64,000 bases of DNA, from NCBI GenBank assembly GCA_963785725.1, contig CAWAWS010000002.1, positions 96,001 through 160,000 on the forward strand, in the 5' to 3' direction. Below, in pieces: positions 24,001 to 36,000 of this stretch. Every line of letters starts with the position of its first letter. Positions within the stretch are counted from its first letter, which is position 1. The stretch is from an uncultured delta proteobacterium (GTDB lineage: Bacteria; Myxococcota_A; Polyangia; Palsa-1104). A program made the position numbers.

Positions 24001-27000
24001 GAGCGGGCGCCAACGATCGAGCGCGGCGTAGCTGAGCCGAGCCGCGAGCGCGCGTTTGGGCGCCGTCACGAGCGGCTCGTCGCGATGACAGCTCGCGAGG
24101 CACAGCGAGATTGCGGCAGCGAGCGTCACGAAGCGCAGCATGTGCGCTATGAATCGTTCGTTCCGCCGCCCAAAATCAAGCGGCGATTGTGTTTACGAAG
24201 ATCGGCTACAGCGCCGCGCGGACTTTGCGCTCTTCTTCGCTGAGCTCGTAGATGCGCTTCAACAACGCGTCGGCGATGCGCTTGTGCGACGAGAGGCGGT
24301 TGCCGAACTTCTTGAACGGCGACAGATCGATGGGCTCGCCGAAGACGGCGATGACGCGCTTGGTGCCGGCGAAGTTGCCTTTGACGTCGGCGACGATGTC
24401 GTTCGAGAGGCCGTGGATGAACGCGGGCACGACGATCGGCCACGCGTCCATGACCAGCTTGCCGACGCCCGGCTGTGCCGGCAGCGGCTGATAGGGATCG
24501 TCGTTCTTGTTGCGCGTGCCTTCCGGATGAAACCCGACGAGCACCTGGCCTTTGTGCAGCTCGGCGACGACGCGCTCGAGCGCCCACTTGTTGAAGTCGG
24601 CCTTCTGCGGCTCGCGAAAGAACGGCGGAAACATGCGCCCGCCGCCGATGAACAGGTTCACGAGCACGCCGAGCGCGCTTTGATAGAAGAAATCGGCGCG
24701 CACCGGACACAACACCGGCTGACGCAGCGGCGTGTGACGATGCAAGAGCAGCATCAACATGTAGAGATCGAAGAAGCTGCGATGGTTCGAGACGAGGACG
24801 ATGCCGTCCGAGTACTTCAAGCCCTGCAGCCGCTCGAGACCGACGGGAATCATCATGTTGCGCGAGCCGACGGTCATCCAGCCGGCGCCGATGGTGCGCA
24901 GCCAGCGCTCGGTCAGCGGCAGCGCGCGCCGATGCAGGAAATCCATGGCGCGGAAGGCGGTGCGCTCGAACGGCGCCAACAATTCGATCGGCGGCGCGAG
25001 CGAGAGCGCTGCGTCGTCGTGCGGCGGCTGCGTGATCGGCGTCTTCGTCGTCGGCATCGGGCTGGCCGGCATCTCGAATTCCAAAGTAGCCTTCAATTAA
25101 CCAAACGGTCAACCCAGAAAGCGCAGCGAAAGCGTGGCCATTTCTCGGGTAACGATCGCGCGCTCGGTGGCATCGGCGGCGACCGTCACGCGCGCGGTCG
25201 GACCAATCGGGCGCTTGTGCGGACGGTGAGAAAGTGCAATACGCATTGGGAAGATGGCCTCGGCCCATGCGATGAATGCGCGACGATCGGCGGCGTTTTA
25301 CGACGTCGACGGCACGCTCATCAAGACCAACATCGTGCACGCGTTCGGCTGGTATGCGCGGCATCAGCCGACGCTGACGGGATCGATCGTCAAGTCGGCC
25401 AAGACGCTCTTGTCGACGCCGGTCTTCGCGGTCGCCGACAAGCTGTCGCGCAAAGTGTTCAATCAGCTCTTCTATGGTTATTACGCGGGCGAGCCGGAAG
25501 ATCGGCTGATCGTGCTCGCCGAAGAGCTCTTCGAAGACACGATCAAGCCGAGCATCTTTCCGCGGGCGCGCGATCTCATCGAGCAGTCGCGGCGCGCCGG
25601 CTGTCGCCAGGTGTTGGTGTCGGGCGGGCTCGACTTCACCGTTAGACCGCTGGCGCGCTATTTGGGCGTCGACGACTTCATTACCAATACCCTCGAGTTC
25701 GAGAACGGCTATGCCACAGGCCATCTCGGTAAGCCGTTCGTAGCCGGCGCGACTAAAGCGGTCATCATGCGCGACTACGCGGCCAAGCATGATATCGACC
25801 TAGCCGCTTCTTACGCCTATTCCGATTCGTACTCCGACTATCCAATGCTCGCCGTGGTCGGCCATCCGACTGCGGTAAACCCCGATTGGAGACTGAAAGC
25901 GACCGCTCGTTCTTACGACTGGCCAGTCCTAGACTTGCGGTAACTGACAGACAACTGCCCTGCGGGCCGTATTGGCAGCAAGGGGCAATCATTCTGCGAG
26001 CCCGATCAGGCTCAAGGAATGGGAAAGCCAGGAACTATAAAGATGCGCGCAATTCGTCCACGTAGCCGTGGCGCCGCTGATGAGAGCGTCGTCACCATCG
26101 ACACCGACTCCGCACCCCGCATTCTCTTTTACGGCGAAGACTTCCTCTGCGAGGATCTGCCGGTCGGCACGCGCGTGATCTATCCGCGTGCGCCGCTCGC
26201 CGGCCTGCCCAATGTGCGCGCGGCGATTCGCTATGCGCTGCACCATCCCGAAGGCGACATGGAGCCGCTGCACGCGCTCTTGACGCCGGGGATGAAGGTG
26301 ACGATCGCCGTCGACGACGTGTCGCTGCCCTTGCCGCCGATGAAGCGGCCCGACGTGCGCGAGGTGATCCTCGACATCGTCCTCGAGATGCTCGCCGACC
26401 ACGGCGTCGACGACATTCACATCATCATCGCGACCTCGCTGCACCGCCGCATGCACGACTGGGAAGTCAAGCGCATGGTCGGCGACAAGGTCTACAACGC
26501 TTACTGGCCCGATAAGCTTTACAACCACGACGCCTGCGATCCCGACGGGATGGTCACGCTCGGCAAGACGCGCCACGGCGAAGTCGTCGAGACCAACAAG
26601 CGCGCCGCCGACAGCGACCTCGTCATTTACGTCAACATCAACTTAGTGCCGATGGACGGCGGGCATAAGTCGGTCGGCGTCGGGCTTTGCGGTTACGAGT
26701 CGCTCAAGGCGCATCACACGCCGAAAGCGATCGTCAATTCGAACTCGTTCATGGATCCGGATAACTCGGAGCTCGCGCATTCGGTGCATCGCATCGGGCG
26801 TGTGTGCGAGCAGCACATGAAAGTGTTCCATATCGAGACCGCGCTCAACTCCAAGATGTTCGATGGACCGTTGTCGTTCTTGATGAAGAACGAAGACGAC
26901 TTCACCGAAATGGACCGACTGACATTCGAAGGTTTGCAGTGGACACTAAAGCGCACTCCTCGTGCGCTGCGCCGTGAAATCTTCATGCGCGTGCCGTCGC

Positions 27001-33000: not shown

Positions 33001-36000
33001 CCGCCTCGTTCATCGAGCACGCCTACAAGGCGCTCGACCGGCAGCCGCCCATCGAGCGCATCTCGGTCGAGATGGCCGACGTCTATTGGTGGTGCGACTC
33101 GTCGAAGGCCGAGCGCGAATTGGGGTTCGTCGCGCGCGATCCGGGCGAGACGCTCGACGACACCATCCGCGACTTGCGCACCCGCATGATCTGATTCGGC
33201 AGCGGTGCTAAGTTAACGAAATGCAGCGCTCGCCGCTCCTGACCGTCACCGTGCACTGCCCGCATTTCGATCGGCCGGTGCAAGCGCAGCGCAATGTCGC
33301 CATCGACCGGCTGTGCGCGTGCAGCGACAGCGCGCTCTGCCGCGATGACTCCAATCCGCCACCGGCCGGCGAGCACGCCCGACCGTTCCCGCACGGCTGC
33401 CCCGTCTTCCCGTCGCTGGCCAAGTAAACAGCCGTTTACAAGCGCGCCATGATCGTCATCGTCATGGGTCCGAGCGGCGCCGGCAAGAGCACCGTCGGAC
33501 GCGCGCTGGCCGCCACGCTCGGCTGGGAATTCCTCGAAGGCGACGACTATCACCCGCCCGCCAACGTCGCCAAGATGCAGCGCGGCCAGCCGCTCGACGA
33601 CGTCGACCGCGCGCCGTGGCTGGCGCGCCTCGTGAGCGAGATTCGCGTCCGCCTCGACGCCAACCGCGACGCCGTCCTGGCCTGCTCGGCGTTGAAGCGG
33701 GCCTATCAGCGGCAGCTCGTCGTCGACGATCGGGTGCGGCTGGTGAATCTGCGGGCGTCGCCGGCGCTGCTGGCCGAGCGGCTGGCGGCGCGCCAGGGTC
33801 ACTTCATGCCGCCGTCGCTGCTGGCGTCACAGCTGCAAACACTGGAGCCGCCCGAGCACGCCCTCGACGTCGACGCCGGCCAGCCGCTCGCCGACCTCGT
33901 GGGCCAGCTGCAGCAGGCACTAAAGTCTTAGTCGCAGCTAGGCTTCGAGGAACGCGCGCAGCTCGCGGGCCAGCGCTTCCGGCTGATGCCGCTGCATCAT
34001 GTGGCCGGCGCCGGCGATCGTGACCTTCTTGGCCACCGGCAGATTCGCCTCACGCCGCGCCTGCTCCTCCGGCGCGTGCCGAAGCTGCGACTCGCCGCCC
34101 TCGACGAGCAGCGTCGGCGCCTTGACCCGCTGCCAAAAGCTGCGCGCGATGTCGAGGCTGAAAGCCGTAGGGCCCGGGCGTCGCGTGCAGCGGATCGTGC
34201 TTGAACCGCAGTCGACCGCCGAGCGCCGGCGCCGTGCCCTGCTCCGCCAGCCGCAGCGCCAACGGCCGCGCCAACAGCGGATCGTGCGCCATCAGCCGCT
34301 CCGCCGCCTCCTCGACCGACGCGTAGCTGCGCGGCGCCCGCTCGCGCGCCGACTTCCACGCCGCCAGCCACGTGTTGACGCGCTCGGGCATGGTCCCCGT
34401 CGACTCGGGCGGCCCCAATCCCTCGAGCAGCGCCAGCTTGTGCACGCGATCGGGATAGGCGCCCGCGTAATAGGCCGCGACGCTGCCGCCCATCGAATGG
34501 CCGACGATCGACAGCGTTCCCGTCGTCGTCAGCCCGATGAGCTCGTGCACGTCGGCCAGATAGTCGACGAAGTGGTAATAGCCGCCGGCGCCGACCCAGT
34601 CGCTGTCGCCGTGGCCGCGCAGGTCGGGCGCGACCAGCCTGAGCCCGCCGGCGCCGAGGCCCGCGTCGACGACCGCTTCCCAGCTCCAGGCGTGGTCGAG
34701 GAAGCCGTGCAGCAGCAAAACCGTGTGCTCGGCGTCGGCGCGGCCCCACTCGAGCACGTGATAAGCGAGGCCGGTCGGAAGCTGCAGCTTGCGGGACGCA
34801 GGCATCTTCCTTTACTAGTTATCAGGAATGCCAACCGCGCGCGAGGAAGCGCAGCAAATCCTGACACTCGTGCGTGGCGAGGCGCTGGCCGCCTACGATC
34901 TCGTCGAGCGCCAACTGAGCGTGCTCGTCATGCGGACGCAGGTCATGTTGTCGCTCTCCGGCATCGTCGTCACCGTCACCGGCTTCTCCGGCCGCGCCAT
35001 CGCCGACACCAGCCAAGTGGCCCGCCTGTCGATCTCGGCCGGCATCCTCGTCGTGCTGGCGTCGGCGGCGGTGGCCATCGGCGGCGTGCTCAAGCTGCGC
35101 TGGATGACGCAAGAGCTGGGCAGCGACGACATCGTCGACATGCTGGCGCGCACCATCGTCGCGCGCGATAAAAAGGCGCGCTTCCTGGCGCTGTCGCTGA
35201 CGCTGTTCATCGTCGGCTTCGGGCTTTACTGTTTCGCCATCGCGCAGCTGCTGATGGCGGCGCGGCCGACGACCTAGATGGCGCTGCAGCCGACGCGCTA
35301 CGAGTTTCGCCTGACGCTGTCGCACGTCGATCGCGGGCTGGAAGCGGCCGAGACGCTCATCGCCGCGCGCCATCCGTCGGAGACGCAGCGCCACCTGACG
35401 TTGCGCATCTTGGCCTGGTGCCTCTTGCACGAGGAGGGTCTGCAGTTCGGCCCCGGCCTCTCGACGCCCGACACGGCCGACTTGTGGACGCACGACCTGA
35501 CCGGCCGGCTCACCAACTGGGTCGAATGCGGCACCATCCCCGGCGAGCGGCTGCGCAAGGCGCTCTTGCATCACACGGGCGCGCATAGCCACGTCGTGAC
35601 CGACGACGCCGAGGACGCGCGCGTCCTACTCGAGGAGCTCGCCGTCAAGAGCTGGCCGCGCGGCACGCCGGCGCCGATCGTGTGGACGATCGATCGCGCG
35701 CTCGTCGCCGACTTGGCCGCGCGTGAAGATCGCCGGCAGCGCTGGAGCGTCACCGTCGTCGGCGACCACTTCTACCTCGACGTCGACGGCAAAGCGCTCG
35801 ACGGCCCGATCGCACAGCAGGCGCTGAATACTTAGCGGCGGTGGCCGTTACGGCGAGTATTGCGCCCAGGGCAGCCAGAACGTGCACACGACCGGGCTGT
35901 TGACGTCGCCGGCCATGAAGTAGCCGTAGACGTGCGCGCTGTCGACCGCGCTGAGCACGAGCGTGTCGCCGTCGCAGTCGCTGCCGTTGCACAGGCCGTT

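Follow-up and report, generated by a model that had tools for sequence, protein, structure and literature searches.

ElbC, a protein of the bacterial ether-lipid (elb) operon, and the flavin ether synthase AGPS (alkyl-DHAP synthase) were found to be nearly mutually exclusive across the genomes compared here. As ElbC trades places with this ether-forming enzyme, it may be the missing ether-bond enzyme of the elb route, a step without an assigned enzyme since 2014 and for which a 2025 preprint still sees "no apparent AGPS candidate" in the operon. We lean slightly towards ElbC, together with the HAD protein ElbB, forming the ether bond by hidden-redox chemistry. The ElbC/AGPS swap is what is new in this work; that MXAN_1529 of Myxococcus xanthus belongs to LarAH group 15 was already known from a 2020 supplement (Desguin 2020, PMC7583248), which also gave the LarA identity of the group, its lost His174 and its HAD/acyl-CoA synthetase/epimerase context. 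The initial annotation reported no link in the literature; this holds for the tie to elb, as our search found no paper joining LarA or its nickel-pincer nucleotide (NPN) cofactor to elb or ether lipids, but not for these three points.

The locus lies in a 64,000-nucleotide stretch of DNA (the window) from an uncultured bacterium, known here from its genes alone (genome 88% complete), and is a four-gene ether-lipid operon, elbB-elbC-elbD-elbE, on the forward strand. The first gene, elbB (25254..25943, with a possible start at 25272), encodes a HAD-IB family phosphatase (PF12710, 123.5 bits; TIGR01490, 138 bits, cut-off 98.3), and the HAD gene adjoins elbC in 68 of 80 loci in our neighbourhood comparison. 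It is followed by elbC (26019..27656, start probably at 26043), which scores 844 bits on NF052592 (cut-off 740) and encodes a LarA-fold protein of LarAH group 15; by elbD (27666..32157), with FAR, acyl-CoA synthetase, ACP and acyltransferase domains recognized by Pfam in two frames, since the frame is broken once in the assembly; and by elbE (32154..33194), an NAD-dependent epimerase/extended SDR (PF01370, 114.8 bits on its own). The elbB-elbC-elbD order, the NF052592 score and all five domain types, which lie within 27666-33194, had been recognized in the initial annotation. The order is that of the M. xanthus elbA-E operon, as far as it is described in the elb section of the review PMC9131029 (after Lorenzen 2014), from which this locus differs in having no elbA and an elbD frameshifted in the assembly; nor does the 88%-complete genome show a true AGPS. 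No elbA epimerase was found upstream of elbB at this locus; in its place stands a divergent acyltransferase (24206..25096, reverse strand; PF01553, 52 bits), with a homolog in 12 of the 80 loci and of uncertain membership in the pathway. An epimerase upstream of elbB was present in only four of them, all Anaeromyxobacteraceae, and elbA is dispensable according to the same section of the review.

The epimerase had been annotated as fused to the end of ElbD, a reading that we reject. The acyltransferase domain PF01553 is split: its model positions 3-72 fall within the long ORF, and 79-131 are read from a different frame (31720-32157) whose stop overlaps the epimerase ATG at 32154, so that no single frame holds a whole acyltransferase plus the epimerase. 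The two halves are separated by 7 bases here and by 6, 9 or 12 in 52/52 relatives holding both, all of which encode the acyltransferase in one frame, while the epimerase is separately encoded in each of the 44 relatives having one downstream. Moreover, one base at 31719 is left out in contigs of two public runs (X1 and X3, both from one study). A single surplus base (31716..31722) would thus have spread the acyltransferase over two frames and run the ORF into elbE, giving a false 1,842-aa fusion, whereas the ElbD of relatives measures 1,447-1,541 aa, about 1,500 aa. A programmed frameshift was also considered but found no support, since the shift is absent from every relative and a raw count gave 16 frame changes among 85 loci of the assembly matched by outside proteins (one being the elbD site, one the elbC/elbD gene boundary and 14 uninspected).

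ElbC is probably an NPN-binding enzyme of the LarA superfamily, as judged from its sequence and predicted structure. It carries a Lar_N domain (PF09861, 122.6 bits), and its model (pLDDT 94.7) gave only LarA-family entries among the top 19 Foldseek matches, the best being 9Q3K (TM 0.77/0.87). Counted from 26019, ElbC D100, K217 and H233 align with the cofactor anchors Asp72, Lys184 and His200 of LarA, and H142 with its catalytic His108. The initial annotation, which had already placed the gene at the elbC position in the LarA superfamily, listed H142, K217 and H233 as H134, K209 and H224; all are kept, but in that numbering the nickel-ligand His is H225 (our H233), which aligns with His211 of LarA_Sp. 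It had also noted the loss of the second catalytic histidine, His174, and indeed the alignment places no His at ElbC 206-213. The racemase residue Arg75 is replaced by L103. We therefore rejected a lactate-type racemase or 2-hydroxy acid racemase-epimerase on residues His174, Arg75 and Lys298. Group 15 as defined in Desguin 2020 (PMC7583248; NF052592) is alike in keeping D72, H108, K184 and H200, in having a gap at His174, a changed R75 and Asn at Lys298, and in its gene context (Table S1 there), although that study gave it no function and no lipid link ("lipid" has 0 matches in the main text). The label "hydroxyacid isomerase" of NF052592 is putative, and the model also takes in group 16, which has no anchors.

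The closest structures are LarA_Sp and LarA_Bw (PDB 9Q2U/9Q3K and 9Q3J; PMC12611868), both with a single catalytic His. Asp73, His115, Lys195, His211, Tyr307 and His401 of LarA_Sp correspond to ElbC D100, H142, K217, H233, Y375 and H474; in the closest structure, NPN is bound by the counterparts of K217 and H233. ElbC shares 24% identity with these proteins and has no equivalent of Asn185 or Lys76; their genes lie in a sugar-metabolism context and that of ElbC in a lipid operon, their reaction likewise being without assignment. ElbC further has about 50 inserted residues, absent from LarA_Sp and LarA_Bw, that include a basic helix. Its hydrophobic moment (0.30) is not above that of other helices and its charge (net +5, mean +4) stands out; as amphipathy is ordinary and charge alone notable, we gave this insert little weight.

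The protein could also retain the LarA fold without using NPN, as a scaffold, a lipid carrier or with another cofactor, which we regard as very unlikely. In favor of it, Arg75, a binder of the cofactor phosphate, is Leu in ElbC, the 2020 paper (PMC7583248) doubts NPN use by group 16, and anchor residues are lost in many distant members: the His/Lys/His triad, called invariant in the initial annotation, is missing in 34 of 76 aligned family rows. The invariance does hold among close members (24/25 rows at ≥44% identity, that is, at least 44%, against 17/50 below), and ElbC is the sole Lar_N protein of a genome in which larB, larC and larE, as previously annotated, all score above cut-off. In one genome (G092), elbB, elbC, elbD and larB, larC and larE are all broken or partial, with neighbouring genes that look whole, which again speaks against an NPN-independent role. 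Co-occurrence with LarC (63/64 ElbC genomes versus 71/137 others, 52%, in the phylum of the window; 16/16 versus 101/145, 70%, in Acidobacteriota; kin are not independent in these counts) strengthens the case for an NPN step in the elb route. These samples agree in pattern with the counts of the initial annotation (105 loci; 39 of 121 genomes). The high LarC background, 52% and 70%, counts against the co-occurrence argument. In another genome (G123, 93% complete), ElbC is present, neither larB nor larC gave a match and larE gave only a short one.

The window gene is orthologous to M. xanthus elbC through group 15 and adjacency: elbD is MXAN_1528, and its neighbour MXAN_1529, hence elbC, shows the same motifs as the window protein when compared by eye. 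The elb section of PMC9131029 assigns acyl-CoA synthetase and ACP activity to ElbD, and describes no ElbC activity, cofactor loading or elbC mutant.

The exchange with AGPS emerged from 161 Acidobacteriota genomes (16 with ElbC, 145 without) and 64 ElbC genomes plus 137 others from the phylum of the window, in all of which related genomes are not independent observations. True AGPS was found in 8/8 Acidobacteriota genomes that have ElbD (1,440-1,506 aa) but no ElbC-family match, and in 1 of the 16 with ElbC, with no strong match in any remaining genome. In the phylum of the window, AGPS occurs in 1/64 ElbC genomes against 27/137 others; within one family (f18), 12 of 17 genomes have it, and the single ElbC genome there does not. 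A Lar_N search of the eight AGPS genomes for a hidden ElbC found other LarA types only in six and nothing in two; no true AGPS was found in the source genome, at its 88% completeness, the best match being a 28% FAD oxidase on contig C7. The two genes occupy the same slot: AGPS and an SDR adjoin elbD in two of the eight genomes, and three of six fetched AGPS loci show the order AGPS-FAR/acyltransferase-epimerase, mirroring elbC-elbD-elbE. ElbD is of the same protein type in both classes, whereas an ElbB-type HAD accompanies ElbC (16/16 Acidobacteriota genomes) and not AGPS (0/8). In a quick ElbD tree (26 rows), one ElbD from an ElbC genome clusters with two from AGPS genomes (SH-aLRT 99), and further ElbD proteins of ElbC genomes fall outside, which points to at least two swaps. 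Both routes are present in M. xanthus and in two further genomes (G148, G326), so the exclusion is not absolute. In favor of an ElbC role, losing AGPS affects M. xanthus only slightly according to the elb section of PMC9131029. ElbC does not belong to the FAD-oxidase fold of AGPS (MXAN_1676; PDB 4BBY), its own being the unrelated LarA fold; the equal role that we propose is that it works like AGPS. The NPN step claimed earlier for aerobic bacterial ether-lipid synthesis is thus strengthened for the elb route by this swap and by LarC, but was too widely drawn, because AGPS-partnered ElbD genomes manage without ElbC.

In the mechanism that we propose, ElbD would activate the fatty acid, reduce one chain (FAR) and acylate a glycerol or dihydroxyacetone backbone. 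ElbC, whose cofactor, by alignment and fold, would be attached at K217 and have H233 as a nickel ligand, would do the job of AGPS in sister genomes, swapping the sn-1 acyl for a fatty alkyl group, as the gene exchange suggests. As a doubtful guess at the chemistry, ElbB may take off a phosphate, H142 and the cofactor briefly oxidize a backbone hydroxyl, the acyl be eliminated, the fatty alcohol add and the hydride return; S-adenosylhomocysteine hydrolase is a precedent for such transient oxidation-elimination-addition. The carbonyl that is left would be reduced by ElbE or, in other lineages, by a zinc dehydrogenase.

It is possible, if unlikely, that an NPN-bound ElbC, though necessary for the route, only isomerizes, epimerizes or shuttles hydride on the backbone (e.g. 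a one-way C2 inversion or aldehyde/ketone interchange), with ElbD/ElbE or different chemistry closing the ether bond. Inversion of a C2 carbinol is what every LarA-family enzyme tested so far catalyzes (PMC7583248), one-way action was proposed for one-His members (PMC12611868), and in an unrelated fold NPN can carry hydride from one molecule to another. The unit replacing AGPS is ElbB plus ElbC, with the zinc dehydrogenase in some genomes, so that the swap does not single out which of them forms the bond. Yet the ElbD type and a reductase are common to both genome classes, and bond formation is hardly to be expected of a HAD phosphatase, which leaves ElbC. A side branch of ElbB and ElbC that makes or trims another lipid, with ether bonds from ElbD/ElbE or an unrecognized enzyme, seems improbable to us. 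The partial rescue of an elbB insertion by elbD alone (elb section of PMC9131029), the unlinking of elbD-elbE from elbB-elbC in several genomes and the six sponge cluster families with homologs of elbD and elbB only would fit it; but ElbC occurs in each of the 61 full-length ElbD-type FAR genomes of the phylum sample, linked or not, the appearance of AGPS where ElbC was lost would go unexplained, and the rescue could proceed via the M. xanthus AGPS.

Altogether, there is about an even chance that ElbC acts as a nickel-pincer ether synthase. It would then be an independent way, without flavin, of exchanging acyl for alkyl, working alongside ElbB in myxobacteria and subdivision 4 Acidobacteria and, via a rearranged FAR-HAD/zinc dehydrogenase/LarA/acyltransferase operon, in other phyla. 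The swap names a candidate for the elb ether-forming step. If true, C-O bond formation on lipids would join NPN chemistry, nickel and larBCE would be required for making E-signal lipids and the ether lipids of acidobacteria, and ElbC would mark ether-lipid producers better than elbD alone. In favor of an ether-forming ElbC, HAD, acyltransferase and zinc dehydrogenase genes were present in 27/27 well-flanked loci of distant family members and FAR in 26. Against it, group 16, without the triad, still adjoins HAD and acyltransferase genes, and HAD-FAR fusions of another cluster type come with neither ElbC nor AGPS. Ether glycolipids are produced by P. propionicum, but the family member listed for it is a degenerate protein of group 16, so it was not counted as support. 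Also against it, intact members occur in one genome without lipid neighbours (G195), in a green alga and in a Lokiarchaeon; among the long members an algal one was the only useful fusion.

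The three long open reading frames of the ether-lipid operon are present at the places given by the initial annotation, all on the forward strand: elbB, a HAD phosphatase ORF (25254-25943), elbC, encoding a LarA-family protein (26019-27656; 844 bits on NF052592, cut-off 740), and a long frame of 1,842 codons from 27666. The fusion of ElbD to the ElbE epimerase that had been read into this long frame was not borne out, as its acyltransferase domain is broken across two frames: it ends at Pfam position 72 and restarts at position 79 in a second frame (31720-32157), and the stop codon that closes this second frame overlaps the start codon of the epimerase (ATG at 32154). 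Among 80 related loci examined, both acyltransferase halves lie in one frame in 52/52 loci holding both, and the epimerase is separately encoded in 44/44 loci having one behind. One base is absent at 31719 in related-strain contigs (two runs of one study), and 16 frame changes, two of them inspected, were counted among 85 matched loci of this assembly. The frame break in elbD is most likely an assembly error, although it may be a real mutation in one strain; the apparent fusion is thus artefactual. Two further ORFs have ends that look off-frame, as indel errors in the assembly would produce: a CHAT-like domain protein in two pieces at 21447-24141 (reverse strand) and an alpha/beta hydrolase at 34050-34805 (forward strand). 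Two tandem ORFs, alpha-amylase-like by eye, occupy 36499-40922 on the forward strand.

In Myxococcus xanthus, elbD is MXAN_1528 (excerpts of PMC11980068) and is adjoined by elbC, whose function is unassigned in passages of PMC9131029. In the supplement of PMC7583248, MXAN_1529, taken as elbC from its place beside elbD, is entered as LarAH group 15 (Dataset S2), with D72, H108, K184 and H200 kept, H174 absent, R75 replaced by Val and K298 by Asn; its neighbours in Table S1 are an epimerase, a HAD protein and a long-chain acyl-CoA synthetase. The LarA identity of elbC was therefore already printed, unconnected to elb. Both the elb operon and this protein group are known, and the link between them was not found in print: our literature searches, with subscription papers (Lorenzen 2014 among them) outside their scope, found no paper joining a LarA-family protein to elb.

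The elb operon provides every activity of the animal ether-lipid route except AGPS, the flavin alkyl-DHAP synthase. That route requires a ketone reductase. It also requires FAR, acyltransferase and AGPS (excerpts of 10.1101/2025.10.10.681575), and deletion of AGPS in M. xanthus had a minor effect (passages of PMC9131029). Taken together, the lack of AGPS in elb and the minor effect of its deletion mean that a second ether-forming activity must exist. Among 161 Acidobacteriota genomes, eight carry a complete ElbD without any match to the ElbC family; in two of these a FAD oxidase and an SDR adjoin elbD, and the elbD-adjacent oxidase matches mammalian AGPS at 498 bits. AGPS is found in all eight, vs 1/16 ElbC genomes (1/15 without the unpublished genomes G253 and G350), and the matches in 13 further Acidobacteriota are weak (26-32% identity). 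Within the window's phylum, with three weak matches set aside, strong AGPS occurs in 1/64 ElbC genomes vs 27/137 others; in its family f18, 12 of 17 genomes have AGPS and the sole ElbC genome lies outside those 12. In a quick phylogeny built from 26 ElbD sequences, several of them of uneven composition, AGPS-partnered proteins are nested among ElbC-partnered ones, and that of the ElbC genome G277 groups with two AGPS genomes (SH-aLRT 99), which therefore implies at least two ElbC/AGPS changes. An ElbB-type HAD is present in 16/16 ElbC genomes tested vs 0/8 AGPS genomes, while a zinc dehydrogenase is seen only in G277 and G325 of these 24. The order AGPS, FAR/acyltransferase, epimerase is found in 3/6 AGPS loci, with AGPS before the acyltransferase in two more; it resembles elbC-elbD-elbE and also M. 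xanthus MXAN_1676-1674 (passages of PMC9131029). Distant ElbC members, gathered with one Chloroflexota-type query protein (80 loci, 27 with enough flank), are accompanied by HAD, acyltransferase and zinc dehydrogenase in 27/27 well-flanked loci and by FAR in 26. ElbC is the operon member displaced by AGPS, and this distribution points to it for the missing ether-forming step. The window's genome additionally carries, on contig C7, a FAD oxidase with distant similarity to AGPS (28%; locus L241, 712217-716698), which is separated by two genes' distance from a gene resembling a lipid kinase, and a broken-looking elbB paralog with an internal TGA (418377).

A predicted model of ElbC, based on an alignment of 76 rows made up of the query, sequences from 18 of the 80 loci and 57 of 150 proteins that were near full length, reached a pLDDT of 94.7, with 9Q3K as best structural match (TM 0.77/0.87). 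The 9Q3K protein carries NPN on Lys195, has His211 on nickel and uses a single catalytic His (excerpts of PMC12611868); its Asp73, His115, Lys195, His211, Tyr307 and His401 correspond to ElbC D100, H142, K217, H233, Y375 and H474, counted from 26019. Residue numbers in the initial annotation equal this count minus 8, apart from H224, which should read H225. In the same alignment, the Arg75 position is L103 and no second catalytic His was found. Since the His/Lys/His triad is kept in 24/25 rows at at least 44% identity and in 17/50 rows below, the ElbC family has, judged from sequence, a degenerate branch, as for LarAH group 16, whose NPN use is doubted in the 2020 text (portion of PMC7583248). 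For ElbC itself, we infer binding of the NPN cofactor.

The NPN makers larB, larC and larE, already listed for this genome, were each found, together with one Lar_N protein. Full-length ElbC occurs in 64/201 genomes of the window's phylum (63 over the cut-off, one at 724 bits), including 61/61 with a full-length ElbD-type FAR. LarC is present in 63/64 ElbC genomes vs 71/137 others there and in 16/16 vs 101/145 among the 161 Acidobacteriota (15/15 vs 100/144 without G253, of the ElbC group, and G350, of the background), a co-occurrence with a high background and with kin that are not independent. In G092, a 1.8-Mb genome in a single contig (C1, L232:8600-11100), elbB, elbC, elbD, larB, larC and larE are all broken or partial, and the genes flanking them look whole. 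Genome G123 has ElbC, yet no larB or larC match. One clade (L002, L007, L010, L011, L012, L014, L048) has elbC genes 76-83% identical with no HAD or FAR gene nearby; the genome of L002, of completeness not given, had no larB or larC match and a partial larE.

From what has been established for ElbC, namely fold, residues, gene order and distribution, we infer that it performs the ether-forming step; the chemistry proposed here is a guess. A dephosphorylated substrate is favoured because HAD accompanies ElbC and not AGPS, and would be a dephosphorylated acylglycerol or acyl-dihydroxyacetone. It would be briefly oxidized and lose its acyl group by elimination, after which fatty alcohol would add and the product be re-reduced. 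SAH hydrolase is a precedent for such transient oxidation, elimination, addition and re-reduction. For this route a single base would suffice and a carboxylate pocket would be unnecessary. Alternatively, fatty aldehyde might be the donor, with a backbone hydride reducing its hemiacetal; fatty aldehyde is present in the wild type and absent from elbD mutants (passages of PMC9131029). NPN is now known to transfer hydride in reactions other than racemisation (excerpts of PMC13524815). A YegS/diacylglycerol-kinase-like gene is often near elbD or elbC (L210:6665-7519, 8 of loci L001-L080, 5 of L118-L197), and its product could re-phosphorylate the alkylglycerol.

Counting against ElbC as the ether-forming enzyme are (i) the partial rescue of an elbB insertion by elbD (passages of PMC9131029) and (ii) the presence of both ElbC and AGPS in M. 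xanthus, G148 and G326. In six families of sponge clusters, elbD and elbB are the only elb genes with homologs (excerpts of bioRxiv 10.64898/2026.06.23.733905). Five Acidobacteriota whose FAR protein is 800 aa long (HAD-FAR in the four fetched) lack both ElbC and AGPS and belong to another type of cluster. A second type of HAD-FAR cluster (L206-L209, L215, L216), with neither ElbC nor AGPS, holds a second reductase, a pyruvyl-transferase-like gene, acyl-CoA ligases and an enoyl-CoA hydratase.

Intact family members also occur in the green alga Cymbomonas (P0052), in a Lokiarchaeon and in G195, at a locus with no lipid-gene neighbours, and the wider ElbC family may therefore do other things. 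Every eukaryotic LarAH is placed in the gluconate epimerase branch in the accessible text of PMC11770544. Eukaryotic-looking members of the ElbC family are P0040 and P0052, both with the triad kept, and P0047 (947 aa), which ends in a C-terminal chlorophyll a/b-binding domain and most of whose 13 cluster members are equally long.
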